Source of the DNA: Podarcis cretensis
Lineage: Eukaryota
Assembly (NCBI GenBank): GCA_951804945.1
Contig: OX638153.1
Coordinates: 29,884,001 to 29,948,000 of the forward strand
Direction of reading: 5' to 3'
Length of the DNA: 64,000 bases
The notes below the pieces were generated by a model, which searched no databases, was not told the origin of the DNA, and saw nothing but the letters and a program-made list of their open reading frames with translations. The translations under genes and the position numbers were made by a program. Below are positions 33,901-62,660 of this stretch, in pieces. Each line of letters starts with the position of its first letter. Within the stretch, counting starts at the first letter, position 1.

Positions 33901-36900
33901 TCATAGTTATGTGTGACCAGTTGCAACAGAATATAGATGAGAATGTGCATCCTACTGATACTGTAGTGTAGATCAACTGCAGCTGTATGCAGATGTTGTC
34001 CTTGCCACTGTTTTCAATGGGATGTGTTTCCAAATGTGTGGACATTCTCTTATAACTAGCAAACAGCAAATAGATTTGAGTGAAGGAGTGATGGCCTAAT
34101 TCACCTTCACATATTTGCAAAGTGGTTTGAATAATTGCAGAAAAGTAGGGGGCACTCTTCACAGGGAGTGAAAAGTTTCATGCAGGGCTCCTTTTGCTTG
34201 CCACTAATAAAATCATTACAGCATATCTGTCCCCTGTGGTTTAACCCAAATTAGGTCAAACTAGGATGTGTTAATGAACTAGAATATTTAATCTGCAGCT
34301 GGCATAACTGGGTGTTGTGATCTTGCGAAGCTCTTGTTCATTTCATTAAGGCTTGCTTATGGATATTTCATAGCAGATTGTACTCGGCATTTGTTAATTT
34401 AGTTCATGTTGTAATATCTAGACTGATTTTTAAAAAACAATAAATGCTTTTCTGAGAAGATACAATACTGTTTTGTTCAGCTGATGAAATAATAGAAATG
34501 CAAGTATCGTCTTTTTTGTCTTAAACTTTATTTCTACAGTTTGGTTTTGCCATATTTACATTTCTCTGAGATTGTAGTATACAGATATATCTTTTTGGAG
34601 TACTGTCTAGTTATCAATTCTGATTCTGTTTTTCAGCAATATTCACAACCACAGCAGACCCTCTATAGTGTACAACAGCAGGTTTGTTCACCTCTTTGTG
34701 TGCATATTGTCAGTCTCTTATCTGCTCTGTCTGAATTGGTCCATAGTCTTCCAGTTCTGGGTGATAGCCCAAAAATGTATTTGTTTTATGTCGTTAAATA
34801 CAGAAATGATTGAAATGTTCACATTAACTGACATGTAAAACCATTTATCCACCAATATACCTCCCTACTTAACGTAGCCTCACTTTAACATATCCTCCAA
34901 CACTCATAACGTGGTGGAGGATTCAACAATGAAGTCTTATATTCCTCCTCCCAGTGTCACATCAGACTGAGCAATTTCAATATATGCTAACAAACTGNNN
35001 NNNNNNNNNNNNNNNNNNNNNNNNNNNNNNNNNNNNNNNNNNNNNNNNNNNNNNNNNNNNNNNNNNNNNNNNNNNNNNNNNNNNNNNNNNNNNNNNNNNN
35101 NNNNNNNNNNNNNNNNNNNNNNNNNNNNNNNNNNNNNNNNNNNNNNNNNNNNNNNNNATAGCTACCTTATCATAGTGGGTTGTATCCAACCGCAGACTTC
35201 TGCTTGCTCAATGGAACTTTCCCCTCTTATCTCTTTCAGCCTCCCCAGCCCACAACCTCAGAATCTGCTCCAGAGGGTTGAAAGACAATTCAGAGCAGAT
35301 TCTGAGGACATGTGGGGAGACGAAGAGGAAGGGAAAGTCTCACTGTGAGCAGATCTCTGCAAATGCAGTGTGATATGCAACCCTATGTGTGCAAATTGCT
35401 GTGCCCTTATATTTGAATCTCTACAGAACCGTAGTGACTTAACTAAGGAATCTTGGAAACTGTTTTTCTGCTGTGATGAAACTGATCTATATTGTTGTCA
35501 AAAAAGGGTTCATTTGCTGGGTTCTTTGAGAAGAGTAATGAGGAGACAGAAGTTGGTCTGAGTATGGTAATGAGGGAAGTGGATGTACCCCAACCCTCAT
35601 ATATTGTCTTGGATACTAAGAAGGGGGAGGATTGGTCTTGCCTTATCCTTTGTATCACATCTTCCCCCTGAACCTCAGCCACTGGGGCGATTCAGAATGA
35701 GCCACAAAATAGAGGCACATTATAATCTAGAATTAGTGGATGGGATAACTATATTGGTAGTGTTGGAAAATGTGCTTTCAAGGACTCATCTTTGGACAAT
35801 AGACATCTGCTGTTGATACATGGCGATCTTGCCCTGCCATTGCCATTTTTAGTCTTGATTCATCCCGTATTACATAAAAGGGAAAATCCCAAACCCCAGC
35901 CACTGGTCTGTGTGGTTTTATGGAGTTGTGGAGCCACTGCTGTATCCACAGCCCTACCATGCCAGAGCAAAAGTTGTGGGGGTAGGGTGATAGCTGCAGG
36001 AGCCTGAACTTGACGCAGCCTGATGCCATCACACAATGGTAATGATATCTGCTCAGGATCCAACATACCCTGGGCCAGCTCAGCCCACCCCACCTCCAGA
36101 ATACTCCAATTTGGGACCTTCGGCTGGCTCCTGCTGGTGGGGGTCTTGCTAGTAAAAGGTAAAGGTACCCCTAACCGCTAGGTCCAGTCGCGGACGACTC
36201 TGGGGTTGTGCACTCATCTCGCTCTATAGGCCGAGGGAGCTGGCCTTAGTCCGCAGACAGCTTCCAGGTCATGTGGGCAGCATGACTAAGCCGCTTCTGG
36301 CGAACCAGAGCAGCGCACGGAAACACCGTTCCTTCCATACACCCATTCTGGCAGCAAAGTGATGCTTCTGTCCTCCTGGTGGTGGCAGCCGGTGGAAGAC
36401 CAGTATTGCTGAGCAGAGGGGCACCACCTAATTCATCCCCTCTAAGCCTAGCACAAAGGGAGTTTGGACTACTCTGCAAGAGTGGAAAGCTAAGTGTTCG
36501 CCAAAACTGCATAAAGAGCAGCTATTGTATAGAATGCAGGTATAGGCAATCATGAAAACATTTTGCAGCTATTTCTCAAAGCTAAATATGGCTAAAGAGG
36601 AAGCTGGACTTGCACAAAGCATAAAAAGTAATTCATGGTCTTGTATTTTTTAAGTTGCAGCAACCTCAGCAAACTCTTCTAACCCAGGTTAGTTTTATTA
36701 AAGCTTTCATCACTGTATAATAAATTTGCCTGTGCACTTGTCAGCTCTGCTTTTGTTTAAAGTTTTAAACATAATGGTACCTTTATTATGTCTCATGTAA
36801 TACAGACAACTGGTAGTTCAGTCCAATGTGTTCTTTATCCCTTTGATTACCTCCCCCTCCCAAACCAAAATATAAGTGCCTTTGTAGTTCTACTGTTATA

Positions 36901-39900
36901 GAGAGATATTAATTTCATGTCATTAGAAGGGGTATTTCTAATGCATATTTTCTCTTAGACTTCTGTTGATGCTTTTAAGTTTTTTGATATTTACACCAAT
37001 GGTTAAGACTAGAAACTTAGGCTGCCATTCTGTGCACACTTACTAGGAAGTAATCTCTATTGAATATGATGAAATTTACTTCTAAGTAAACCTGCATAGG
37101 ATTGTGCTGTAAGTAGTATACAGATATTTGAAGAGACTTTTCTTAGGACAGGAAAGTAATTATTTTATGTTCATAAAAAGTAGTGGACAAAAGGTACATA
37201 CAGTCTGTCCTCCCCCCCCTCCCCCCCCGGCAAGGCAGCCTATATTGCACTTGAAAATTCTGAAACATTTTGCAGCAATGTAAGATATTCATATTTTTGT
37301 CTGTGCTAGTCTTTCAGAAAACGTTTTAAACATATGTTTCAATGTGCATAACCACTTTAAGGAGGTCAAAATATAGCATAGGAAAGAATAGGTTGCCGAA
37401 AAGATCATTGATACAAACTAAATAATAGAAGCAAAATTCAAAATCTGGAAATGTTCTTGGAAAACATCAATTACATAGCAACTGAAAAACAATCTCTGCT
37501 TCCAGATCATGATTGGTGCTAGTCTGAAGGCATTTCTGTGTTCTGATGTGCATTTACAGTTTTCATGTTTGAGGTTATTTTTATAGAAATACAAATAAGC
37601 CTACAGTTTGAGGAAATGATTTGGAAGAAATGGCCACCATAATAAGCAGGTGGGGTTTTTGATATATTGGTTGAACCAGCTTGTGCAACTGCAGTTTGAT
37701 AGGAGAAAAATCAAGGTTTATCTGTTTTTTCCTCCCCCAATGTAAAAAGGTATAGTTTTTTGCACTTCGTACAATGCAACTTTAGTTCAAAATAATTTTT
37801 CAGAGTGTGTGGCCTTTGACACCTGAGACATGTTTTCAGACCCCACCCTATTCTTGTGGATGTAATTTTTAAAAACATTTTAAATACTGAATTTTAAATT
37901 GTTGGGACCTGATGGTGAAGAATGGGTAATAAACTGAAAAAATACAAATTATTATTATCATTATTTCAGCTATACTATTTAGAAGATTGTCAATGCTTAC
38001 ATAATTTCATGTTTTATTTTGCACGCAGCCAGCTGTGGCACTGCCAACAAGCCTTAGCCTATCTACTCCTCAGCCAGCAGCACAGATAACTGTTTCTTAT
38101 CCAGCACCTCGGTCAAGTCAGCAGCAGAGCCAACCACAGAAGCAGCGTGTCTTTACTGGAGTAGTTACAAAGCTACATGACACGTTTGGTTTTGTGGATG
38201 AAGATGTATTCTTCCAGCTCAGGTAACTTAATTCTACCATACGTGGACAAGTGGTGATACTGATAAAATGCATGAGAAATAATATAGAGAAAGAAGTTTA
38301 TCGAGAATTATGGTAGTGTGATGTCTAATAATGCGACTCTTTTCATTTTGCAGTGCTGTGAAAGGGAAGAGTCCTCAAGTAGGAGACAGAGTTTTGGTAG
38401 AAGCAACATATAACCCTAATATGCCTTTCAAATGGAATGCGCAGAGAATTCAGACACTACCAAATCAGGTATATACAGTCACTCAGTCTGACTCTTGTCG
38501 GCACCTTTAGTGTAAAGCTGATTCACAAGTTGTTCCCTTTTTCCTCCTCGTTAGAACCAGACTCAAACCCAGCCTTTACTTAAGACTCCTCCACCTGTAC
38601 TTCAGCCTATTGCACAGCAGACTGCATTCAGTGTGCAGCCACAGCCGCAGCCACAGTCGCTGCTACAGGCACAGATATCAGCGGCTTCTATTACACCTTT
38701 GCTTCAGACACAACCACAGCCTTTGTTACAACAGCCACAGCAGAAAGGTATTTCTTCAATACTTGACATATATTGGAAGTTTTCTTTTCAAAAAAAATGT
38801 AGAAGAATATAACTGACTGAATAGTATCAAGGCTATATGGTCTTCAGTTTACCTTGTAGCTGAAGTGCAAGAGAGATGCTGCATTCTGAAGTCAGAACAA
38901 ACCATGATTTCTTGTGATGGGAACTTCAGGCTTGCGTATTCCCGCACACGCAGGGTATAGTTGTTAAAGCTTCCAATTGCTGTTTGTAACCACAATTTCC
39001 AATTTTATCCCAGTACAGAAAACTGCTTATACAAACCATGGTTATTTAACCAAGTTCAATTCTCATTTAACTAGCTATGATATGTATAAACCACACATTC
39101 CCATATTCAGATGAAATGGGAAACTGCCTTGTTGCAAACTGCAACAGGAAACCTTGTGTGCAAAAGGTGGGAATGTAGCTTATAAACCTGACAATCACCA
39201 TAGCACATTCTCATAATGTTAAACTGGTTTATTATAGCATTGGAATGTAGAACCCAGCCACACATTTTGTAATCAAGGTTCTCCGTGGATATGCTATGAT
39301 TTTGTTTATAACTATAGTCTAAACTTTGTGTTGCCTGTTAGTATCCATAATATATATGCATTTTAACATCAGCTGTAGAATACCATGCTTCATCCTTCTA
39401 AAGAATAAAAGTGAGCCCCTCCATTAAGAACAAGGTACCTCTAAAAAAACATTGTAGCACCAGAATTCATAATCACTTTGTGGTTACTTCTTGCATAAAA
39501 TAGGTTGGCATTAGGGCTGGTAAATTGACTAGTTCTGTGGTTTCTGAAGAGGTAAATAAAAAATATGGGTGTCATTCATGTAGAGCCTTAACCTTCAAGA
39601 GAACCTGTTTAGTGTCTACATAGAAACTGTTGATGTTTTGGACTTTACTTGAGCAATCTGAACTAAGGGGAAGTTACCTTGTTTGGTTTGGTTTTAAATC
39701 TGTTTTGCCCGCATGTTCTTTCTTAGGCCTCCTTCTGCTCTGTGGACTTTGTATTTGCTTGCACTGTTTCTGAGGCTCATCCTGTTGTGTGACATCTGGC
39801 ACAATTGCTTGCTGTTATATGCTCTGGTAGACATTTTCTTGAGTACTGTTGCTCAGTCTTCTTTCCTACAGCTTGAGTCAAATCTAGACCTCTTTTTCTT

Positions 39901-42900
39901 TGCTGCAGGGAACTGTGGATTGCCCAGTTGATGAGAGTAACCTCTATCTGTTGTTCATGTTGTAGTTTATGGCATTGCCCTCTCACAGTGCTTAATGAGG
40001 CAATCATTGTGGAGTTATAGCAACAGAAATAATAGATTGTTGATGATTTGAGGGCCAGTTCAGACTACTTGGCAATTATTTGTGGCCCTTTCCCCCCATC
40101 TTGTGTGTTCTTCTGAACAACTGTAATGCTTGAGGGCAAGCTGCATGTCTCTGCATGCTTACTGGTTAGCAGTGACTCTCCAGCATGTAGTCACTGCCTG
40201 ATTACGTGCAGTTGCTTCCCTATCAGATATTGAGAAGTGTTAAGCAGGGGGCGTGTGATGGACAAACAGCTTCAAAATGAGGACTGGCCTTCAGAATAAA
40301 CACCAAGAGCAGTATTTTGTTGAAATGGACACTGATTTACACCCCACATTGCTGGAAACTGAATGGTTGAGTCAAAATCTTCCAGCCTGTTAATATTTTC
40401 TGAGTAATGTAGGTTTAAAGCATTCAATCAATATAATGTTCTCTTGAACCATTTTGTTCAGAATTGTGTCCCTCCCCTTGAATTCTGTTAAAGTGAAACT
40501 AGCTGCATATCCCAGTATGATGAGGCTTGCATTGAGGAAGAAAAATTCATCATCTTGCCTATATAATTTGAAGAGTTAAATGAATGCATCCCATTGGATT
40601 AAATATGAGAAACCTTATGTTGCTTATACCTATTGTTATTAGCTGATTGTTGGATTGCGGGGGCCACTAGGGGGCGCATTGGAAGATGGCCGACAATACC
40701 ATCTCTCCGACCCACATGGGGTAATTAAGAGGCTGTTATGGGAGTAGGCAGCCTCCCTTGTTGCCCCAAGGAAATGGGGAACACTGCCCTTGCCTGCTGT
40801 GCCCATAAATCACCCCCTAATTCGAAAGAAGGGGGTGAGGGCCCTAGGCAGAATGTCCCCGTGTGGACCTCGGCTCTCCTGGACGCTGTCTCTGATCGCG
40901 CACTAGTTGCAGCAATTTGGAATAACTAATTACAAAAGAAGCAAATGCACATATTTCAAGTGAAGAAGGTGAGTGAAGTCTGCTAATTTAAGTGACCTCT
41001 GCGAAAGAAGACGACGGGTTGGAGAAACAGGAATATTTTACGATGAAGATACACCAAAGGCTGGATATGTTGACAACGACGGGACTGAATGGGGGGGAGG
41101 AACCTTTTTTACTTTCCTTCTATGTGATTTACAAGAAACCCTCCTCATTAGAATCGTTGGTTGAACTGACCCAAGCAGGATGATTAAGGTCTGTGTGGAG
41201 ATAAACTTTAACCAAAAGTATGCTTTATGAAGATCGAGAAGCAGTAAGAGCATTTGGGAATGGTGCAGCAATTAATTCAGAGTCGCCATCTTGCCAAAGG
41301 ATTTATAGCCGGGAGGAAGAAAGGACTTGTTTTCAGACTGCATTCCTAGTGAATCTCCTCAGAGGTTTTGAGAAAGGATGCAGATTGGTGAAGATTAATG
41401 ACGCTAAGACTGTTTTGATGTATGGAAGTGATGTTATATGGAAAACGTCTGGTTTCACAGCCTCAGCCAGCTACTGGATAAAAAAAAAAATCCACGCAGG
41501 ATTACAAACTGTTCTAACCAGCTTGCGGAGATTATCAGAGGTCACCAAGAGAAAGGAAAAATATATGAAAATAACAACAAGAGATGTGGAAAAACAGTAA
41601 GAAAGGACTGGACAGTACTGTGAACATCATAAGATTAGATTTGTGGACATTAAAACAGCAGTAAGAAGCAAGAAGTTGATTAGATCCCCTTCGAAACTTG
41701 AAATATGGGTACCCCCAACAAAAATTTAAAATTCGGCTGTGTAATTTGGAATTTATGTAATTTGGTTTGATTTGATGTGATTGGTCGGTTAATAAAAAAT
41801 TATTCTTAAAAAAGATTGTTGGATTGCTGCCACATTCATTTCTGCAAAACAAATGAGCAAATGTTCTATGCTATTAAAAAAGCATGAAAACGGATAGTCC
41901 AACAAATAAGCTACATTTTTGTGTTATAATTTGCTTACTGATATGAAATTCTTAAGAACTTGTGGGATTTTTTCCCCCTCCTAGCTGGTTTGCTACAGCC
42001 CCCTGTTCGAATAGTTTCACAGCCTCAGCCAGCACGGAGATTAGATCCACCACCCAGATTTTCCGGGCGAAATGACAGAGGAGACCCCATGGCTAACAGA
42101 AAAGATGACAGAAGGTGTGATACAAAAATTCCTCTCAATTTTCTGTACATATTACAGACAGGAAATAATTTAAGTATTTGAAGTTTGAATGTAAGTACTG
42201 TTCAGTTTTGTTAATGATGATTTCAGAATGGAAGTTTTGTATGTTTTGATGTTTGTTGCTATTGGTTCTAGAGTTATAGGCATGTGAGCTCTGTGTTCAT
42301 AATGGTAGACGCTAAAACAAGACATTTATATTTCACACATGGTTAAGTCGTGAAAGGGAGCGTGAGAGACGTAGGTCACGGGAAAGATCACCCCAGAGAA
42401 AACGCTCTAGAGAAAGATCACCTCGGCGAGAGAGGGAACGATCACCCCGAAGACCCCGACGTGTTGTACCCCGTTACACGGTCCAGTTTTCCAAGTTCTC
42501 ATTAGACTGGTATGTTATCTTGGTGTGAAATTGTGATTTCATATTTTTCTGTGGAAGGTATCTTACTGCTATAAAAGAAGGATGCATTAAATAAACCCAA
42601 GAGATTGAAACATAGCTTCATTTTTGTTGACTTTAAAGTTACTTAATGTAACTCAGTTTTACTTGAATGTTGTTCTTTCTCCACCCACCTCCATCCACTG
42701 TAGACAGAATATTTTGTGTAAATTAAGGAGATGTGCTTTTTAAACTTTCAGCTACACAATGACCCTCTTTGTATTACACATTTTTACAACCGTGTGGGGT
42801 GGCTGTGGACATTGTACAGGAATTTTGGAGCCAGATATGTTTCAAAGTGGAGAGCTGAAACAGTTTACCTGGCAATAAAGCATTAGCTAATCTGTAAGAT

Positions 42901-45900
42901 GTTGCAAGTTGGGTGCAGAATTCAGTGCTTTCAGAATCTCTTTAATTTGAAAGAACATGTTTCTAACCCTTGAAGGGGTGAACAAAGGCTTGAAAATGTG
43001 AATGCAGTATTTTCATGACTGGTATAGACTATAGAATTTTGAGAAATCTATGGTACCTTATTATATGATACATTAAGGGTATACACCTTAATAGTGTACT
43101 TTCAGATTATCATGATAAAACAGGGAGTTTCTGCCCAACCTGTCTGTACCTCGGCTAAAGCCTGATCAGGGCTGGACTGTAGTGATTTCCATTTACTCTG
43201 ACAGTTGCCTAACTGTTCAACAGCTTCTGGAGAAGCAACTTACCCTAAAAACAAAAAATGGTGTTGGTTGGGTTTATTTGTTTGTTTGTTGACTGATTAA
43301 AACATTTTTTTAATATTTCTGATACTTGATAAAAGTTTAATGGCTATGACAAAAAGTACCGTAGCTTCCACAAAGGGCTGAACCAAAGTTTTGTGAGTCT
43401 TGATTTTTGTTTCAAAATTTGCATGTTCTGTTTCAGAGAACGTTTCAACAAGCAAAAATTTTTTTTAAAAAATTGCCCAAAATAACGTTACTGTATTTTT
43501 CTTCCAAGATGATGACACTAATGGCTCTGAGCTGCTTTTCAGTAATGTCAAAAGTAGAAGCAAAACTATAAAAAGAGTGTTTGAGCTCAGTTCTCATTCT
43601 GCATCTTGCTACTAATTTGCTTTTAAGCCCCAGCTCTTTTTATTGTTGTAAAATATATTTTCTTACTGTTTAAAGCCTTAGCTGTGATATGATGGAACTG
43701 AGACGGCGATATCAGAACTTGTACATCCCAAGTGACTTCTTTGATGCTCAGTTTACATGGGTGGATGCATTTCCTATGTCAAGACCATTTCAGCTAGGAA
43801 ACTACTGCAATTTCTATGTAATGCATAGAGAGGTAGATCCTTTGGATAAAAACACTTCTGTACTGGATCCACCAGATGCCGATCATCTTTACAGTGCAAA
43901 GGTATGCCCAACAACCGAAATCATTCCTGCTTGCATAGAAATGTTTGGAAATGCTTCTTTGAAGGGATTCCCATTGTCTTCTGTGCATAGGTTTTCAGTG
44001 ATGTTACCTTTGTCGCAAATCTTGACTGAACAGTAAGTTCAGTTGGATCAGATTCGGTTTCAACTCTTTTATTCCAGAGTGGGTGACATCTTTCCATGGA
44101 TTCTTTAGTTGGGCCCTTGGTTCATGTTGTGTGTGCATAAAAGATTGCAACGAACTGTATGTAGCAATTCAAGAAGCTTTGGATCTGCAGGCTACTTGCT
44201 AATTTAGACAAGTCTTATTTTGTGCTTTGGGCATGTTAGAAATTTAAAATCAAGTGATGATTTCATTGAGATTTTTGGATATTTAACCCTTCAAAACAGG
44301 TGTATCTTTTTTTGACTTTATGCATTATTCTAGACCTATTGAGTTTAGCAGTTAAGTGTAAGATACCAAGCTTTGAATCATAGCTTCGTTACGTTGTCTT
44401 GTCTTGTCTTTTTTTTTTTTTTGTCATATTACTTTAACAGGTGATGCTCATGGCCAGTCCTAGCATGGAAGATCTCTATCACAAATCATGTGCTCTTGCT
44501 GAAGATCCACAAGAGCTCCGGGATGGTTTTCAACATCCCGCTAGACTCATAAAGGTAAAAATATGCATTTCTAGCAAACAAACATAAACTTAGAAATTTT
44601 GCTGGAAAATTGATGCAGGTACAAGCTTTCCACATAGTTTTCTTTATGTTGGGGACATAGAATCCCTATATGGACACAAATAATTACTTTTGAAATGTGT
44701 TTTATATATTATTCTTACAGGAGGCCCCCTGTAGTCTCCCATCCAAATTATTAACATGGTTTGCATGTTTCTTGCTCTCAGCACTGCTGAAGCATGTGGT
44801 CTTGCAAACCATTCACAGGACTAGTTTCATTTTTAAAAATGGGCTTAGATCTGTTGCATTGGAGAAAGCCCTTTCCTTGTGCATGAGCAGGAGGAGAGAA
44901 GGTTCTCGCCAATTCCCCCTGCTCCCAAACTGCTCTGGATCTTCCGTGAGACTTTGTTCACACAACAGAATCTTTAGATCCAAGCTAGTCCGGTGTTTTT
45001 TGCGTCTTGAAAGCAAATAACATCACCTTGCGAGAAATGGGGGGGCGGGTTTCCCATAGACACCATGAAACCATCAGTATAATCCTATGCATATTTACTG
45101 TGAAGCAAGTTCTCCTTTTCTCCATTGGAACCTACTTCCAAGAAAATACCTTCTTATGTTTCTGTCTAAAATACTTTTAAACTCTTAAGGTTATGTCACT
45201 GAACAATTCTATAAGCCCCTGATTTTACAGTACAGAATATTATTTTAATCTGTTGTTTAAAGCATTTTTATATGATGACAGACTGTTCCGAAGTCTTGCA
45301 GAATGAATGAGTAATGATGTTTAAACCTATTCCATTACTGAAATGCAATGTGGAAAAACGAAACTGAACTCATTCTTGAGTAAGACTTAGGCTGCAAAAC
45401 TGTATTCACTTATCTGGGATTATGCCCATGGTAGTCATGTATAGAATTGTGCTGTCATTCTTGCAGATTAGGGATAACTGCTTGTGATGGCATGTAAACT
45501 GACAAACAGGTATGTGTAATTTTAATGGGTTGTATCCAATGCAGAATGGACTTCATCACTCTCCAGGGTTTTGGGAGACTGTAGGGCAGGCTTCCTTAAC
45601 TTCAGCCCTCCGGATGTTTTGAGACTACAGTTCCCATCATCCCTGACCACTGGTCCTTCTAGCTAGGGATGATGGGAGTTGTAGGCCAAAAACATCTGGA
45701 GGGCCAAGGTTGAGAAAGCCTGCTGTAGGGCATTCAGAAGAAGAAAGTGGAATCCAGTCGGAAATCATTGCAGCATAGGATTCTACCCTTTTTTTGCAGT
45801 TTGGATAATCTTTTTTTTCTTGGAAGGAAAGTGCTAAGTAGCCTTTTCTTCTCTAGTTTTTAGTGGGTATGAAAGGTAAAGATGAAGCCATGGCTATTGG

Positions 45901-48900: not shown

Positions 48901-51900
48901 TGGTGGTAGCATGGGAAGGAGCTGCTAAGCCATTTATGTCTTCATCTCTATTTATATGTGCATCTTCCTTGTTGCAATAAACATTGCTAGTGCTAAGAAC
49001 ACAAAATAACAGGGCTTGTTAAGTTACATTAGAGTTAAATAAATTTCCAGCCACAACGTAGTGCTGGTTAGGCCTTTGCTTGGTAGATAAGAAGTATGCT
49101 CTCCTTTTCCTCAAATGCTGGTTACATCATCTCTCATCTCCTTATTCTTAGGTGTCTTAGGGTAAGAGAAATTGACCCGATGATCTTGATCACTGAGTGA
49201 AAATTTGAACCTGGGTCTCGCCAGTCACTCCCACACTAGGCTGACTCTCCAGGTTCTGTCATGGAGTGTCCCAGCTAGCATGCATATAACATTCACATAG
49301 GGGAAGGGAATAGAAGTGTCCAGTAAACAACTGAGTATGTGGCTCTCCCCACTCCCCCTGCCTTTTCACCCTCCTCAAGAAGTAAATATTTGAAGTTCAT
49401 ACTCTGATGTCTCCACTCCAAATTCCTTTTTTCAAATCTTTAGGAAGAAGAAAGGAAACGCTTAGAGGAAGTGGAACGCCAACGTCGAGAGAGGCGATAC
49501 ATCTTGCCTGATGAGCCAGCAATCATTGTGCATCCTAACTGGGCAGCCAAAAGCGGAAAGTTTGACTGCAGTATTATGTCTCTTAGTGTTCTTCTGGATT
49601 ACAGGCTGGAGGATAACAAAGAGCATTCTTTTGAGGTCATCTCTTCACTTAACTTTCTCCCCTCACTATTTCTGAATAACTACTTGCGTGATCACCCTTC
49701 TGATCACACGGCATTGGATACAATGAATTAAGGTGCCCCTGTTCTCTTAAGAGTGCAGCCTTTCTGGCTTCAAGCTTTTGATTTTATGCCCCCATCTTGG
49801 TTCTGCAATGAGACAGGGCCAGCTCAATTACTTACGTCAGATTAAGAAAAAAGGACACTGTTTACCAGCAGTACAGCTGTGAAACCTCCATTCATTTGAA
49901 TTGGATTTGCACCAAGCTAGACTTCTGTGCTCCTGTTACAGTAAATAAATTATGACAATTGTATGCCTCTCTTCTACTGTAGCCTGGCACCATACATGCA
50001 GTGGCTTAGTGATCTTCAAGTGGGGGCCTACTTTATAAGAAAGTTGAACTTTGCCATGGAATCAGGGGATATAGTTGGGCAACTCCATATTTTGTAACTT
50101 CAGCCTGCCTTTCTGTAAAATGAGGATACGGTGAATTTTCTCACTAGAATTTTGTTTAAGCAAAAGAAAAGATTGTAAACCTGCAGAATTTCAAGAACAA
50201 GGTTGATTTTTTATTTCTGCATTCTTTTAATGAACAGGGATTTTGATATTACTGCTTGTATTGAAGTTGAATATTATGTAACTGTTTTCTCAGGTGTTAA
50301 TCACTTCTAGCAAAACCAGCAAAAAGCCTTGTGGCATGTTAAAGATTAATCTATTATGGCATGAGTTTTCATGGACAGTAGTCCATTTTTTCAGATGTAT
50401 AAAGTGTTATCCTGCGTTGTAGGTATATTGAGGGTGGGGCATAGTACAAAGTGAGGTAGAAGGAAATGAAATGTACGAAAGTACAAGCAGAGTTAATTAC
50501 GTTTTAACAAAAATAATGTGAGTGTACTGTTTGTAATTCTGTTTCGGTGCTTTGTTAATTCTAGTTTGTTGCTTCCTGTGCAGGTTTCATTATTTGCTGA
50601 ACTTTTCAATGAAATGCTTCAAAGGGACTTTGGTGTCCGAATATACAGATCCCTCTTGTCGCTTCCAGATAAGGAAGATAAAAAAGATAAAAAGAACAAA
50701 AAAGATGAGAAGAAAGAGAAAAAGGAAGAGCGAGATGATGAAAATGATGACCCAAAGCCTAAAAGAAGAAAATCTGGAGATGAGAGAGAAAGAAAAGATG
50801 AGAGGGATGACAGGAAGGTTAGTGGCCATTAGAAGAAAGAACTAATCAGCTGATAAATTAAGAATGGTTTGTGAAGGATGGGCTTGTTACTACATTTCAT
50901 CAGTTTTAATTTTATTTCTCATGCTGGTTAATTTTATCAGATCTTGCCTGATAGGAATTCTATAACTGATTTCCTCCCCTTACAAGGAGCTCAAATTGTT
51001 ATATAAAAAAAATAAATCCTACCCTACCCCAGACAATGACAACAACTGGAGCACTGCTTCAGCTTAATAATTTTCTGATTGTTGGTTCACTCTTCAGGGC
51101 AAATAGGAAATACAGAAACTTCAGCAATATCATCCGTTTTCACGTCCTCTTGCTAGGGGAGTGGGATTGAATCCCAGATCTCTGTGATTTGTTTTAGAGC
51201 CTTTTGCACCAAGGGTGAGATCCAGTGTTTTATGAATGGACTCCCCCTTCCTCTCCTCTCTGTGCACTCCAGAATCTGCTCCAGAGGGCTGAGACTTCTT
51301 CTAGAGTGGATTTAGAGATATACAAGGGAGAACAGGGTAGAGGAGAAGGGATAGTCACATTACACAAGCAGAAACGGATTACCCAGTCGGGCAGACACAG
51401 TTGGATATCGCCCCCAATTTGTGTGGTTTGAAGGTTTTTAAATTACTGCTGCCAGTTGTTGGATTGTGTTAATATTTATGAACTAATTACAGAGAGAAGA
51501 TAAGAGGAAGGATGATGCTAAAGATGAAGATGAAATGGAAGATGACAATAACCAGGAAGAATACGATCCAATGGAAGCAGAGGATGCTGAAGATGAAGAT
51601 GATGGTATATGGGGATGATTACTCTAATTAAAAGGTGGCAGGTGCAGACAAAGGCAAAACTGTAGAGCCCTCAGTTATGTGTGTTGATTTACACTAGTGA
51701 ATTTGCAGTGAGTAACAGACTGTGTAGGGACGCAGGTGGCGCTGTGGGTTAAAGCCTCAGCGCCTAGGGCTTGCCGATCGAAAGGTCGGCGGTTCGAATC
51801 CCTGCGGCGGGGTGCGCTCCCGCTGCTCGGTCCCAGCGCCTGCCAACCTAGCAGTTCGAAAGCACCTCTGGGTGCAAGTAGATAAATAGGGACCGCTTAC

Positions 51901-54900
51901 CAGCGGGAAGGTAAACGGCGTTTCCGTGTGCGGCTCTGGCTCGCCAGATGCAGCTTTGTCACGCTGGCCACGTGACCCGGAAGTGTCTCCGGACAGCGCT
52001 GGCCCCTGGCCTCTTGAGTGAGATGGGCGCACAACCCCAGAGTCTGTCAAGACTGGCCCGTACGGGCAGGGGTACCTTTACCTTTACCTTTAACAGACTG
52101 TGTACTATACTTCTGTACCTTTTGATGTGAAAATCCAATCTATAAAACTACAATTATTACTTGATTATTGAACCAAAGTGGTCCAGAAGAGAAGTAATAT
52201 CTTTGGCACATGCGTGTTAACAGAACTTCTTCTGTTTCTTTCTATGTTGTAAGATGCCCTTAACATCACGTGAGCTGTGTGCATCTTCATTCTAAGATAT
52301 GTATAATAGCAGTATAAAGCGCTAACGTAATATGAATATGCTATGTTTGTTTCCATAGATAGGGATGATGAGGAAATGAACAGACGAGATGACAGAAGAG
52401 AGGGAAACCGGCATTGCAAAGAGAGAGCTTCTAAAGATAAGGTATTTAGTGCTGTGAGTTTCTAACTGTGAATCGATGAAGACGCTAGAGAACTGGGAAG
52501 GAATAGCCTGTCTGCCAAAACTGTCTTCATCAGTCTTAAGTTCTGAAGTTCTTGAAGGGTTTGTTTACTGGAGATACTGTCAAAAATCAATTGAAGTGAA
52601 AACTCTCTCCATATTATGTAATATACTAGTAGCTCTGACCTGTAATCAGTGTGGGAACTAACTCCTGGAAAAAACTTCTGTCAGATCCTGCTGCTCCTAT
52701 CTCTTGTCCTCATAAATTGTATAACCATCTTTGAAAGTGCTTAGTGTTGAAGCGCTTTAGAAAATTGATATATATGCATATTCCTTTAAGGAAGCTGTAC
52801 TTCACATATTTTCTAATACTGAAATAACTAATGGATAATAAAAAAGGGGGGAAAGCCTTATTGTTACAAAATGTGTTTTTTAGGAAAGAGACAAAACACA
52901 GATGATAACTGTTAACCGCGATCTTCTGATGGCTTTCGTTTATTTTGATCAATGCCATTGTGGATACCTTCTAGAAAAGGATTTGGAAGAGATACTGTAC
53001 ACACTTGGACTGCATCTCTCACGAGCTCAGGTTTGTTGCTAAAGCTGTATGGGAATGAAGCGCTCAGTCTGCATCACTCTGGGGGCGTTTTCTGTGGTTA
53101 ACTGCAGTATAATAAAGAGAAATAAGACTTGTCCAGTCACTTTTTATACATATGTATTTTCTTTGCTAGAGAAAAGGGAGGAAACAAGGGGGTGTTCATG
53201 ACGGAAAAAATGATAAATGATTGAAGTCCACATGCATACAGAAGAATTTTATTGTCAATAATTTACGTAAAATTACTCTCTTGCTGTAAAATATTTCAAG
53301 CTTTGAGATTTTATTTTTTTTATTTTATTTTTTTGCCTTTTTAAGGTATTGTAGAAATGTATTGCTTATATTTTGCATGAGAATCATGCCTTTGTTGAGC
53401 AAACCATTAATGTGAATTTGGTCTCCTGCTATCTTAGGTTAAGAAGCTGCTTAATAAGGTGGTGCTTCGTGAATCTTGCTTTTATAGAAAACTGACAGAT
53501 ACTTCTAAAGATGAAGAAAATCAAGAAGAAATTGAAACTCCACAGGAAGAAATGCTAGGTGACACAATTTTGTTAGCTATGAAGACATGTCTACCATTAT
53601 GTATGGTGAAATATCTTCTACCTGCGTCACTTTAATAGCATGTACTCTTTCTTCAATGTGGTAGGTAGTAAAGGCTGCAGCAGTGAAATTCAGAGAGGGG
53701 ACCATTTTGAATGAGCTGAAGTCCCTGTGTGCTATTTGGATCCTATCCTGTTTTTTCCATATTTTGCCAACATGACGATCTCAACACTATGGACGATCTG
53801 AAAGTTTTCTGAGTGGGAATTTTGCTCCTTATGTTGGGACTGAGGATGTGGGGGAGGGAAACATTTGTTTCACTCTTGGACTATGCGAGTACACTGGAAT
53901 TCTTGAGAAAACGTGGGACTTTGCTAATTTTCTACTGTAGGAGTCTTGAAACTCACCAGTCATGTCTGGTGGTGACGTTGATTTTAATGATATTTCTTAA
54001 CCCCCTATAGGAAACAGGCTGCTGCTACCATCACCTGCTATAAAACAAGAACCAAGAAGCTCAGAAGAAAACGTTGGCCTCATTGTTTACAATGGAGCTA
54101 TGGTGGATGTAGGGAGTCTCTTGCAGAAACTGGAGAAGAGTGAAAAAGCCCGAGCTGAGATGGAACAAAAGCTTCAGTCACTAGAAGAAAAGACAGGTAA
54201 GAGAGTGAGATTTGAATTATTGCTTCACACATTCAGAAAGGTTTATTATTAAAACAGAAAAATACTTTAAAGCCGAACAATTACAATTCCTATGAATTGG
54301 GTGGAGTGTATGAATACTCAGGTCTTCTGGCCTGAATAAAGAGGACACATCTTACCAAATCACATTACTAGCTCTGCTGGGTGATACAGCTGTATAATTA
54401 GTTACATGGCATCTTTAACGCTATTTGTTCTGTAATGCTTGAAGGAATATAGAAAAACCGAGAGTGTTTTAAAATCTTTTTTGGGGGTTTTCAGATGAAG
54501 ATGAAAAGACTATATTGAATTTGGAGAATCTGAATAAAGGTCTGTCTGCAGAACTTAAAGAAGTCAAAAAAGATGCTGGCCAGCTACAAGAGAATTTGAA
54601 GGCATCAGAAGATACAAATTTGCAGTTTGAGGGGCAGCTGAATAAGACAATCAAAAGTTTGGCTACAGTTATGGATGAAATACACAGTGTTCTTAAAAAG
54701 GTAAAGGTTTTTCTAATTCTGGTTGGGATTCAACTAATCTGTTGCATGGGCAAAGCGAGGCCTGCTTCTGCAACCAGACAAACTGCACTTTATTAAACTT
54801 TGCCTAACCATAGAGGTGCTGTGGCCTGGAGGGTGTCATGAAGGCCACACAGAGGCCTGTATTTGGATCCTGGGCATGAGGTTCCCCATCCCTGTGAAAG

Positions 54901-56338
54901 AGGTGCATAAGATTAGGCATTGCATGGAGAAACTGGGTCAGGAGAAGTTTTTTCTCCCCCTGTCATAATATTAGAACTCCTGGGTTCTAACGAAGCCAAA
55001 CGTTGGAACATTCAGGACAAACGCAAACACTTCACACAGTGCATGGAACTCTCTTCCCCTAAGAGGTAGCGATGGCCACCAACTCAGATGACTTTAAACA
55101 AGGATTAGAAAAATGCATGGAAAATAGAGCTGTTGATGGCTTATGTTCCCCTCCACTCTTAAGAGGCAGCTTGCCTCCGAATTCCAGCTGCTGGGAATCA
55201 GAAGCAGAGAGAGTGCTGTTGTACTCAGATCTTGATTTTAGATTTTCCTTAGGCATCTGGTTGGTCACTGTGCAAATAAGATGCAGAACTGTGGCCTGAT
55301 CCAGCAGGGCTCTTCATATGTTTATATGATGAATACCCACTTCCATCAAAAAACAAGCCTTAAAGAGGCACTGACTGTTTACTTGGAGACCCCACTGTGG
55401 TTCTTTAGTCAAGCCACATTGCAAGAGGAACAATATAATCAATATCCTTTAGAGCCAATATCCTTTAGAGTCATGTGGAAGATAACACCCAAAAGAACTT
55501 CAAGAAATTGAAATATTGCTTCAGTTATATTACTTTCTTGCCAGCCCTGGCATTGAAAGTGTGTATGTGGGAGGGAGAGGGGAAGTGAGGAAGAGGGAAA
55601 GAAGAGGGAGAAAAGAGTAGTAGGTTTGGTTTTTGTCTCCTAGCATATTAAAGGTAAAGGTAAAGGTACCCCTGCCCGTACGGGCCAGTCTTGACAGACT
55701 CTGGGGTTGTGCGCCCATCTCACTTAAGAGGCCAGGGGCCAGCGCTGTCCGGAGACACTTCCGGGTCACGTGGCCAGCGTGACATCGCTGCTCTGGCGAG
55801 CCAGAGCCGCACACGGAAACACAGTTTACGGTCCCTATTTATCTACTTGCACCCGGAGGTGCTTTCGAACTGCTAGGTTGGCAGGCGCTGGGACCAAGCA
55901 GCGGGAGCGCACCCCGCCGCAGGGATTCGAACCGCCGACCTTTCGATCGGCAAGTCCTAGGCGCTGAGGCTTTAACCCACAAATATCTGTGATTTCACAT
56001 TATGTAAAAGAGTAGTATTTGAAATTGTATTAGTATTTGCAACTATTGAAATCTGGTTTTCCTAGGTATTCAGGTATTCATTTTAAGTGTATAGTGTCAT
56101 AGTTTGGCACTTCAAGCACAAGACACAAGGATCCATTCTTATTAATCACTAAGTGGCTGATGACAGGTGATTAAAAAATAGTACCTGCTGTTAGCATGGG
56201 AATAATGCTGTATATGAATTTATACATTACTTAGGGCTTCAGTTGATATAACCCTTCATTAGTGTATTTCCTCCTTTTCTACAGGATATTGTGAAGATTG
56301 AAGATCAGAAATCCAAAGAAAATGGAGCAAATGTATGA
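30924..56338 (+). CDS. CCAR1: CCAR1 (cell division cycle and apoptosis regulator 1), ~1150 aa: Q-rich N-terminus, S1-like, RS/ER-rich, DBC1/Nudix-like, SAP, EF-hand-like, coiled coil
   Basis: Start MAQFGGQKNPPWATQFTATAVSQP, end ...KENGANV*. 23 visible coding exons (3230 nt) are phase-consistent except across the N-gap, where one 3n+1 exon (exon 14) is missing. Confidence 0.96.
32903..33075 (+). CDS. CCAR1: CCAR1 exon 3
   Basis: ALGVQQPSLLGASPTIYTQQ...AAAAAALQQ; AG/GT. Confidence 0.93.
34637..34681 (+). CDS. CCAR1: CCAR1 exon 4 (45 nt)
   Basis: QYSQPQQTLYSVQQQ; tttcag/gtttgt. Confidence 0.9.
34998..35157. other. Assembly gap (160 N) in CCAR1 intron 4
   Basis: N run. Confidence 0.99.
36153..36334 (-). 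mobile_element. Sauria SINE, 5'-truncated
   Basis: aaaggtaaaggtaccc...gactctggggttg...cagcatgactaagccgcttctggcgaaccagag. Confidence 0.85.
36655..36687 (+). CDS. CCAR1: CCAR1 exon 5 (33 nt)
   Basis: LQQPQQTLLTQ; tttaag/gttagt. Confidence 0.88.
38029..38222 (+). CDS. CCAR1: CCAR1 exon 6 (start of S1-like domain)
   Basis: PAVALPTSLSLS...KQRVFTGVVTKLHDTFGFVDEDVFFQL. Confidence 0.94.
38354..38468 (+). CDS. CCAR1: CCAR1 exon 7
   Basis: AVKGKSPQVGDRVLVEATYNPNMPFKWNAQRIQTLPNQ. Confidence 0.94.
38555..38747 (+). CDS. CCAR1: CCAR1 exon 8
   Basis: NQTQTQPLLKTPPPVLQP...QQPQQK; ends phase 1. Confidence 0.92.
40659..41813 (+). mobile_element. Non-autonomous L1-like retroelement, 1155 bp
   Basis: Exact 14-bp TSD GATTGTTGGATTGC (40645-40658, 41814-41827). 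G-rich 5' end with AAGATGGCCG; AATAAA at 41791 and a short A tail; no intact ORF. Confidence 0.75.
41985..42114 (+). CDS. CCAR1: CCAR1 exon 9
   Basis: GLLQPPVRIVSQPQPARRLDPPPRFSGRNDRGDPMANRKDDR. Confidence 0.93.
42348..42509 (+). CDS. CCAR1: CCAR1 exon 10 (RE/RS-rich)
   Basis: RERERERRRSRERSPQRKRSRERSPRRERERSPRRPRRVVPRYTVQFSKFSLD. Confidence 0.93.
43676..43901 (+). CDS. CCAR1: CCAR1 exon 11
   Basis: LSCDMMELRRRYQNLYIPSDFFDAQFTWVDAFP...ADHLYSAK. Confidence 0.94.
44441..44554 (+). CDS. CCAR1: CCAR1 exon 12
   Basis: VMLMASPSMEDLYHKSCALAEDPQELRDGFQHPARLIK. Confidence 0.94.
45309..45371 (+). ncRNA. SNORD98: C/D box snoRNA SNORD98 in CCAR1 intron 12
   Basis: C box ATGATG 45314-45319 and D box CTGA 45364-45367, with terminal stem GAATGAGT/ACTCATTC. 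Guide CCTATTCCATTA upstream of the D' box CTGA is complementary to 18S rRNA UAAUGGAAUAGG (human Gm867 site). SNORD98 is known to be hosted by CCAR1. Confidence 0.93.
45587..45722. mobile_element. hAT MITE (136 bp, palindromic)
   Basis: TIR CAGGCTTCCTTAAC/GTTGAGAAAGCCTG; exact 8-bp TSD CTGTAGGG. Confidence 0.88.
45857..46023 (+). CDS. CCAR1: CCAR1 exon 13
   Basis: FLVGMKGKDEAMAIGGHWSPSLDGPEPEKDPSVLIKTAIRCCRALTGIDLSVCTQ; ends phase 2. Confidence 0.94.
46709..47008. other. Assembly gap (300 N), probably hiding CCAR1 exon 14
   Basis: N run; exon 13 (phase 2) cannot join exon 15 (phase 0), and the expected peptide is not found in the flanks. Confidence 0.85.
47800..47883 (+). CDS. CCAR1: CCAR1 exon 15
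   Basis: DEEEKDDGEAKEISTPTHWSKLDPKAMK. Confidence 0.93.
48214..48399 (+). CDS. CCAR1: CCAR1 exon 16 (SAP domain)
   Basis: VNDLRKELESRTLSSKGLKSQLIARLTKQ... Confidence 0.94.
48420..48679. mobile_element. Tc1/pogo-like MITE 20 nt downstream of CCAR1 exon 16
   Basis: TA-CAGTCATACCTCGGG...CCCGAGGTACCACTG-TA; CpG-rich interior. Confidence 0.85.
49444..49635 (+). CDS. CCAR1: CCAR1 exon 17
   Basis: EEERKRLEEVERQRRERRYILPDEPAIIVHPNWAAKSGKFDC...EHSFE. Confidence 0.94.
50310..50400 (-). mobile_element. Penelope-like element pLTR remnant
   Basis: Similar to 7615-7715; degenerate hammerhead core on the minus strand. Confidence 0.5.
50584..50817 (+). CDS. CCAR1: CCAR1 exon 18
   Basis: VSLFAELFNEMLQRDFGVRIY...ERDDRK. 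Confidence 0.93.
51493..51604 (+). CDS. CCAR1: CCAR1 exon 19 (acidic)
   Basis: REDKRKDDAKDEDEMEDDNNQEEYDPMEAEDAEDEDD. Confidence 0.9.
51727..52090 (+). mobile_element. Full-length young Sauria SINE
   Basis: GGGACGC head, pol III B box GGTTCGAATCC, (ACCTTT)n tail; exact 14-bp TSD TAACAGACTGTGTA at 51713-51726 and 52091-52104. Confidence 0.95.
52359..52441 (+). CDS. CCAR1: CCAR1 exon 20
   Basis: RDDEEMNRRDDRREGNRHCKERASKDK. Confidence 0.9.
52884..53030 (+). CDS. CCAR1: CCAR1 exon 21 (EF-hand-like)
   Basis: ERDKTQMITVNRDLLMAFVYFDQCHCGYLLEKDLEEILYTLGLHLSRAQ. Confidence 0.94.
53438..53558 (+). CDS. CCAR1: CCAR1 exon 22
   Basis: VKKLLNKVVLRESCFYRKLTDTSKDEENQEEIETPQEEML. Confidence 0.93.
54011..54196 (+). 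CDS. CCAR1: CCAR1 exon 23
   Basis: NRLLLPSP...GLIVYNGAMVDVGSLLQKLEKSEKARAEMEQKLQSLEEKT. Confidence 0.93.
54495..54700 (+). CDS. CCAR1: CCAR1 exon 24 (coiled coil)
   Basis: EDEKTILNLENLNKGLSAELKEVKKD...EIHSVLKK. Confidence 0.92.
54900..55325 (+). mobile_element. CR1 LINE 3' fragment
   Basis: gatggccaccaactcagatgactttaaacaaggattagaaaaatgcatgg...gatccagcagggctctt. Confidence 0.7.
55649..55981 (-). mobile_element. Sauria SINE, same subfamily as 51727-52090
   Basis: Near reverse complement of the 51.7 kb copy, including diagnostic segments (gactggcccgtacgggcaggggtacc). Confidence 0.93.
56285..56338 (+). CDS. CCAR1: CCAR1 last exon coding part
   Basis: DIVKIEDQKSKENGANV* after a strong polypyrimidine-cag acceptor. 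Confidence 0.9.
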   Translation, partial: DIVKIEDQKSKENGANV

Positions 56339-62039: not shown

Positions 62040-62167
62040 CCTTGATCTCTGCCAGGTGGAGGCATCTTTGGGTAGTCAAGGCTTTTCCCCCTGTGCCCCT
62101 TTCATCCCTCAGGTATTTGTATGCATATTCACCACTTCACATTTTGGCACCTAGTACGGTGTTTCCC

Positions 62168-62517
62168 AGGTGGCACTGTGGGTTAAACCACAGAGCCTAG
62201 GACTTGCCGATCAGAAGGTTGGCGGTTCGAATCCCCGTGACAGGGTGAGCTCCTGTTGTTCGGTCCCAGCTCCTGCCGACCTAGCAGTTCTAAAGCACGT
62301 CAAAGTGCAAGTAGATAAATAGGTACCACTCCGGCGGGAAGGTAAACAGCGTTTCCGTGCGCTGCTCTGGTTCGCCAGAAGCAGCTTAGTCATGCTGGCC
62401 ACATGACGCAGAAGCTGTACGCCGGCTCCCTCAGCCAATAAAGTGAGATGAGCGCCGCAACCCCAGAGTCGGCCACGACTGGATCCAATGGTCAGGGGTC
62501 CCTTTACTTTTACCTTT
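62168..62517 (+). mobile_element. Sauria SINE nested in the left TIR of a hAT MITE
   Basis: Sauria SINE body and tail; duplicated target TAC(G/A)GTGTTTCCCA at 62155 and 62518. Confidence 0.9.
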
Positions 62518-62519
62518 TA

Positions 62520-62660
62520 CAGTGTTTCCCAAACTTGGGTCGTCATCTGTTTTTGGACTACAACTCCCATCATTCCTAGTTAACAGGAACAGTGGTCAGG
62601 GATGATGGGAATTGTAGTCCAAAAAAAACAACGACAGAGACCTAAGTTTGGGAAGCACTG
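62520..62660. mobile_element. hAT MITE (true left end at 62157, split by the SINE)
   Basis: CAGTGTTTCCCAAACTTGGGTC...GACCTAAGTTTGGGAAGCACTG; degenerate TSD ACCTAGTA/ATCTAGTG. Confidence 0.8.

Follow-up and report, generated by a model that had tools for sequence, protein, structure and literature searches.

A non-coding, L1-type retroposon family of a Podarcis genome carrying a CTCF core at its presumed start in several lineages

SVA elements of hominids are non-coding, Pol II-type, polyadenylated and L1-mobilised retroposons of more than 1 kb. HAL1 elements are likewise short and L1-dependent, with an L1-like head, a poly(A) tail and target-site duplications (TSDs), and encode ORF1p (PMC5753468). 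ORF-free bipartite LINE derivatives are listed only for RTE, Ingi, Vingi and R2 in the part of a survey that treats them (PMC5786205); Bov-A, RTESINE, WALLSI3 and the Vingi derivatives are non-coding, keep a full 5' end, are likely transcribed by Pol II and are moved by LINEs in trans, with homology to the parent at both ends. Mouse B2, a short tRNA-derived Pol III SINE with ChIP-proven CTCF binding, is a young retroposon that spreads CTCF motifs, including lineage-specific insertions, according to the relevant parts of two studies (PMC8136502, PMC7520972). The human L1 5' UTR begins with a G-run followed by AAGATGGC (PMC5381506) and is bound by CTCF, which one report links to promoter activity (PMC6004460). 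Transposon-borne CTCF sites are thus documented in mammals, and the reason for which an element carries such a site is usually untestable, since it is present in all copies.

Here we describe a retroposon family from the lizard Podarcis cretensis. It resembles SVA in being non-coding and over 1 kb and, probably, Pol II-transcribed, polyadenylated and L1-mobilised, but shows no VNTR, tandem array or Alu- or ERV-derived parts, and consists of many deeply diverged, co-existing lineages. Like Bov-A and its counterparts it has no coding sequence, a full 5' end, likely Pol II transcription and likely LINE-driven movement in trans; whereas those elements are homologous to a parent at both ends, this family has an L1-type signature and no parent was found. 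It shares with HAL1 the short length, probable L1 dependence, L1-like head, poly(A) and TSDs, but HAL1 encodes ORF1p and this family has no ORF, with frameshifting indels between lineages. Like B2 it is a young retroposon spreading CTCF motifs; it differs in that four separated lineages carry the motif, as a putative binding site, where transcription presumably starts. The likeness to human L1 is one of motif; the sampled L1s of the lizard genome are without such a head. Between sister lineages, one G decides whether the CTCF motif is present, and this change has occurred repeatedly; empty orthologous sites are also available. Benefit to the element is therefore separable from benefit to the host and from chance. 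We propose an L1-mobilised, protein-free retroposon whose sources in CTCF register out-copy others, a reading that we consider evenly balanced between right and wrong.

The family was recognised through one copy in a stretch of 64,000 nucleotides (the window; assembly GCA_951804945.1, contig OX638153.1, positions 29,884,001 to 29,948,000); features lie on the forward strand unless stated otherwise. This copy is a 1155-bp insert at 40659-41813 flanked by exact 14-bp direct repeats (40645-40658 and 41814-41827), and its 3' end (41791-41813) comprises AATAAA at 41791-41796 and a tail of six As at 41808-41813. Its head has five Gs, a CTCF core at 40664-40677 and, at +25, the YY1-type motif AAGATGGCCG at 40683-40692, which is present in every aligned lineage and also forms one strand of a predicted hairpin. 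The core matches at 14 of 14 positions the IUPAC CTCF core CCASYAGRKGGCRS; it is the only exact match within the window, and its sole CpG falls at motif position C12. The definition of the YY1 motif was taken from PMC5381506. A second YY1-like motif lies in reverse orientation at 41285-41292 (reverse strand; consensus position 624). The longest stop-free frame of the window copy is 131 aa. The earlier note had described this insert with its exact TSD, AATAAA, A tail and G5-CTCF-YY1 head, and had seen no intact ORF; all of this is borne out.

The element lies in sense within an intron of 3,237 nt (38748-41984, forward strand, GT..AG) and ends 171 nt before the acceptor. The splice joint was present in 4/4 RNA runs, and the neighbouring exons encode S1-like and LAIKA domains of what is presumably, by peptide likeness, a CCAR1-like gene. 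In run X14, from the related organism H, one contig connects 40644 directly with 41814 and has a single TSD, with flanks about 2.5% different from the window; runs X1, X3 and X6 pass from the flank into the element. The earlier note had proposed an empty-site check in sister species, and organism H supplies such a site: the window copy is a genuine insertion that postdates the divergence from organism H. It differs by 2.4% at non-CpG positions from the majority sequence of its subfamily, A, and carries a private stretch of 20 nt at 41452-41471, which replaces a few family bases, is identical to host exon sequence 200 bp downstream (42014-42033), is absent from all other family loci compared and has single-copy depth in run X1. 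It probably arose as an insertion during locally templated repair, with the exon as template. The sense AATAAA and A tail so close upstream of the CCAR1-like splice acceptor could be a candidate for early polyadenylation; the RNA runs all come from organism H, which is without this insertion.

Across the genome, a head pattern recognised 1,427 5' heads, against 4 for its control, and a 3' 23-mer with at most one mismatch gave 1,584 matches, against 0. All 40 scored genome matches are the same element, comprising the window copy and 39 others at 94-96% identity, and 37 of the 40 are essentially full length. The insert is therefore not a single-copy sequence, and the dispersed family with L1-type insertion hallmarks that the earlier note had supposed does exist. 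Exact TSDs of at least 14 bp were found in 23 of 30 fetched copies; among 109 copies, 91 have a TSD of 10 bp or more (median 16 bp). At these 91 insertion targets, a pyrimidine occupies position -1 in 77 and a purine each of positions +1 to +4 in 64-80. An A tail follows AATAAA in the fetched copies, and 3'-anchored copies were full length in 16 of 20 cases and 5'-truncated in 4. Variable TSDs, a Y|RRRR (TT|AAAA-like) target, an A tail and some 5' truncation are hallmarks of L1 mobilisation, and LINE-1 enzymes probably made the copies. Young L1s with intact ORF2 frames of 1,238-1,260 aa are present in the genome and offer a plausible enzyme source.

Lineages of the family diverge to about 67-70% identity yet stay near 1.1 kb. 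Non-CpG divergence from the majority sequence is 0.6% for subfamily N, 1.4% for A and 1.1% for B, the ages of A and B being biased young because both were sampled as best hits. Subfamily N, with mostly 98-99% pairwise identity and 38 of the 100 heads among those listed, is the youngest and may well be active at present and polymorphic for its insertions. The family was found at high depth in 4/4 DNA runs from four organisms. Along the element, change at CpGs runs about 7-8 times faster than at the remaining sites, consistent with germline methylation. This is a real, apparently undescribed variant of the L1-type non-autonomous retroposon; no description was found in the openly searchable literature, and repeat libraries may hold it unnamed. 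Many copies contain nested younger SINE-, LTR- and LINE-like insertions (L031-L034, L040, L043, L046, L050, L131, L139 and L168), which are useful for ordering repeat activity.

The longest stop-free frames in three majority sequences span 94-124 aa. Pfam searches yielded no match above cut-off for 7 frames from the window copy and none for 39 frames from 10 further copies (E<=0.01). Of 120 shared gaps, 25 have lengths divisible by three, and the indels between lineages shift the frame; the family shows no coding constraint, and the ORF1p coding that defines HAL1 is absent. A decayed ORF1, suggested by inspecting translations by eye, was rejected on the lack of ORF1 similarity, the lack of a Pfam match and the gap lengths. 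ARAGORN found no tRNA head, an Rfam search of the element gave a best E of 1.6, and the element has no B box and contains internal T4+ runs; the family does not belong to the Pol III SINEs. Since it has neither a protein nor a Pol III head, we infer Pol II transcription and polyadenylation. In organism H, RNA of the family is predominantly sense (depth 36.1 vs 3.0 at 40704-40847, run X23), a bias that could come from oligo-dT capture. The 5' RNA reads of organism H showed no start-site pile-up and carry upstream flank, and much of the family RNA may therefore be read-through.

The earlier note had taken the element for an internally deleted L1 with an L1-style 5' end and had proposed a comparison with full-length L1s. 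The L1 loci compared included 20 nine-kb loci, 30 RT-centred loci and the 5' parts of 20 loci of one further family that had seemed alike by eye; no clade-2 L1 was recovered. A profile of 51 element copies against 40 L1 loci (blastn, nhmmer) gave a best E of 4.8, and no homology to the element was found in the 20 nine-kb, 30 RT-centred and 20 5'-part loci beyond about 28 A/T-rich terminal bases at the 3' end, which resemble L1 tails (E 0.014). No ORF1 or ORF2 similarity was detected in the element copies. When 34 heads were fetched with 7.7 kb downstream, none ran into an L1 ORF; 31 ended in the family's own 3' end and 3 were interrupted by other sequence. Similarly, 0 of 20 3'-anchored matches led upstream into ORF2 within the TSDs, and of the ORF2 fragments near copies, that at L034 is nested, that at L150 lies beyond the TSD and that at L044 follows the A tail. 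The description as an internally deleted L1 thus finds no support among the L1s compared.

The claim of an L1-style 5' end stands in part. The YY1-bearing head resembles the mammalian L1 start, given as a G-run followed by CAAGATGGC in PMC5381506, but the seven resolved full-length L1 copies and the further family start with (G)ACTTCCGG or GGCTTCCGG. Anole clade-1 L1s also begin with (G)ACTTCCGG, as the same source reports (PMC5381506). A G-run with a YY1 site is therefore not the local L1 style. The element might still be an internally deleted L1, or an ORF1-less half-L1, from an extinct or unsampled family such as a short-UTR clade-2 L1. We regard this origin as possible though rather doubtful: the mammalian-type head, the L1-like last 28 or so nucleotides, and an A-rich sense strand and hairpin-rich 5' part, both as in local L1 5' UTRs, speak for it, whereas the profile search, the missing ORF1 and ORF2 similarity and the long-flank heads speak against it. 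Within one local L1 family, some copies (L232, L234-L235) are without internal 5' UTR blocks relative to L237/L240, and in L232 several hundred bases seem to be skipped from a point that starts with GT, as in spliced L1 insertions.

Among the first 100 heads listed, 27 have five Gs, 45 a GT variant and 27 four Gs, with 1 chance match. In this sample 72 heads are in CTCF register, which for 1,427 heads would amount to roughly 1,000 copies. The CTCF core is matched exactly by 50 of 63 five-G heads, and 30 of 32 four-G heads lie at 3-4 mismatches from it. The motif is present in the source consensus of lineages A, B, C, N and O, including the three youngest (N, A, B), and is not in that of the four-G lineages. 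The CTCF site that the earlier note had attributed to the family accordingly holds for the subfamily A consensus and for about 1,000 copies, but many lineages have four Gs and usually 3-4 mismatches.

On a tree of 51 copies, built with the head excluded, the register changes four times (in O, in C, in A and in B+N together); depending on the root, this corresponds to four gains, or to three gains and one loss. A single clade of five-G heads was rejected (p-AU 3e-37, 39-copy tree). A G-to-T change at the degenerate K position occurred in two separate lineages, and their union in one clade was likewise rejected (p-AU 4e-26, 51-copy tree). The CTCF core was likely gained separately in four lineages, and head changes after a gain stay within the CTCF consensus. 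No lineage with three or six Gs was seen among the sampled copies, and one private change from five to four Gs occurred among 30 A copies. Four-G lineages have terminal branches with a median of 0.028 and a minimum of 0.007, in a tree sample for which many four-G copies were picked for being four-G.

The RNA of the family is predicted to fold. Two full-length majority sequences are more stable than their shuffled versions (z -3.7 and -4.7, with 8 shuffles for each) and reach lower energies in sense than as reverse complements (-334 vs -281 and -335 vs -295 kcal/mol). By alifold, consensus positions 1-7, the G-run (40659-40665), pair with positions 1028-1035 (41707-41716 for the 3' partner). 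The two blocks covary: of 17 copies with an A in the run, 15 have T opposite, as 63 of 71 with a G have C; a further A-T pair marks the 4 copies of one lineage. A wobble-tolerant helix scan did not beat its controls. A Watson-Crick-only column scan, devised after that failure, ranked first the helix 292-302/1025-1035 at 21 bits, in the long-range stem formed by inverted repeat I1 (5' arm 40950-40972, 3' arm 41685-41707), with three further helices nested inside; its three controls gave none at or above 16 bits and no compensated pair. The top helix contains a compensated pair, C-G in 9 copies (lineages O and N) vs T-A in 40, compensations being counted on extant copies and label changes only. 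Fewer pairs were broken than under the null in 8 of 11 comparisons, at <=9/1000, and the fold of subfamily A was not conserved beyond the null against three groups (G, C, E150).

These predictions point to a likely conserved end-to-end RNA fold, a nested rod with its two ends paired. Alternatively, template switching or conversion during copying could keep the arms of an inverted repeat similar, and the long-range complementarity would then reflect no functional fold. Most compensations are indeed transition pairs, one stem position tolerates mismatches, and independent-pair sign tests, which had only 2-3 pairs and hence low power, gave p 0.5-1; the nesting of the helices, the better folding of the sense strand and the persistence of internal loops, which have not been erased, make this explanation improbable. 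As a working guess, the conserved fold would present the A tail to L1 ORF2p and favour full-length copying. The bases of the CTCF core also fall in a predicted stem, whose partner at 40898-40906 closes a 5' hairpin domain, and changes in this partner could explain the Y and K substitutions in the core. In A, folding gains about 1.8 kcal with the long head; in N and in two of three B copies the long head is not favoured.

In the mechanism that we propose, YY1 at +25 would set the transcription start, by analogy with human L1, and the RNA would be polyadenylated at AATAAA. It would then fold into a 5' hairpin domain and a nested rod, so that the 5' end meets the 3' region, and L1 ORF2p would nick at Y|RRRR and prime on the A tail. 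One G added to the head would create the CTCF core, and sources so changed would out-copy others. Since CTCF knock-down lowers human L1 promoter activity, as reported in PMC6004460, a benefit of CTCF to the element is plausible by analogy. On this view, the cores scattered in roughly 1,000 copies would be a by-product, and most inserted copies are likely methylated. The full version of this reading is that of an L1 parasite with an end-to-end-folding RNA, whose start-site CTCF motif evolved three to four times because CTCF keeps sources active, and which in its most recent bursts has scattered about 1,000 bindable, partly lineage-specific sites over lizard genomes; we offer it tentatively, as a possibility that may well prove wrong.

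A neutral explanation would keep the same L1-mobilised family and retain the G-rich head for RNA pairing and for YY1, with four or five Gs arising by slippage; the CTCF match would then be a neutral side effect and CTCF would have no role in copying. The head bases are indeed predicted to pair, both with the 3' partner and with 40898-40906, and one-base changes in G-runs are easy, as the private change in 1 of 30 A copies illustrates. Many four-G lineages have also amplified well (27 of the 100 listed heads), and the core CpG decays like other CpGs (in 13 of 101 inserted copies vs 18.5 expected, P 0.12). Slippage sits less well with four separated lineages in CTCF register, with the absence of three-G and six-G lineages among the sampled copies, with two independent G-to-T changes at a tolerated position, or with the long head of N, which gains nothing in folding. 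We judge the neutral explanation unlikely, though a serious competitor of the proposal that CTCF-register sources out-copy others. If that proposal is true, selection on the element itself, not on the host, would be the engine of CTCF-site spread, and four-G/five-G sister lineages and filled and empty sites would serve as natural controls.

The earlier note had further suggested that such copies could seed loop anchors. In this account, CTCF and YY1 would occupy the copies scattered by the family, and the host would retain these as loop anchors or boundaries; mouse B2 SINEs offer a parallel, and their polymorphic copies bind CTCF (PMC8136502). The number of copies in CTCF register favours it, as does the position of the only CpG: methylation at C2 is described as the dominant block to CTCF binding in vitro in PMC10325916, and with the lone core CpG at C12, methylated copies could still bind. 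The inserted copies tell against it. Non-CpG private changes in the core number 21 vs 10.1 expected, partly from 5'-junction noise, and those in the YY1 motif 8 vs 6.7; changes in the core are not fewer than expected, so that there is no sign of host-level conservation. The fast change of the element's CpGs, consistent with germline methylation, also weighs against retention. Given the CpG decay and the absence of extra motif conservation, loop-anchor function is therefore without support so far, and we consider host exaptation very unlikely. At the level of sequence, the family does seed the motif.

A strict CTCF core had 4,765 matches in the genome vs 90 for its control. By coordinate, family heads are 21 of the first 100 strict-core matches listed (C1, first 31.7 Mb), and another 22 of these 100 share one other 14-mer; a second repeat family gives a similar share of CTCF cores. 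Real bound CTCF sites are far more numerous, and more degenerate, than strict consensus matches. With about one fifth of the strict consensus matches in the stretch sampled, the family would extend CTCF-site seeding to reptiles at scale. Long-lived and without an ORF, marked by an L1-type signature and predicted to fold end to end, it also falls outside the RTE, Ingi, Vingi and R2 list in the cited part of PMC5786205.

All 10 loci fetched for the second 14-mer lie in the same other repeat (L171-L180; G000 C1, 1.1-9.4 Mb). In a frame of this repeat, a CCHC zinc knuckle precedes a protease motif that is presumably Copia-like. The window also holds five related repeat copies of about 350 bp (20738-21088, 36152-36336, 51725-52096, 55648-55981 and 62167-62517) and two palindromic MITE-like stretches (45586-45723 and 62520-62660).
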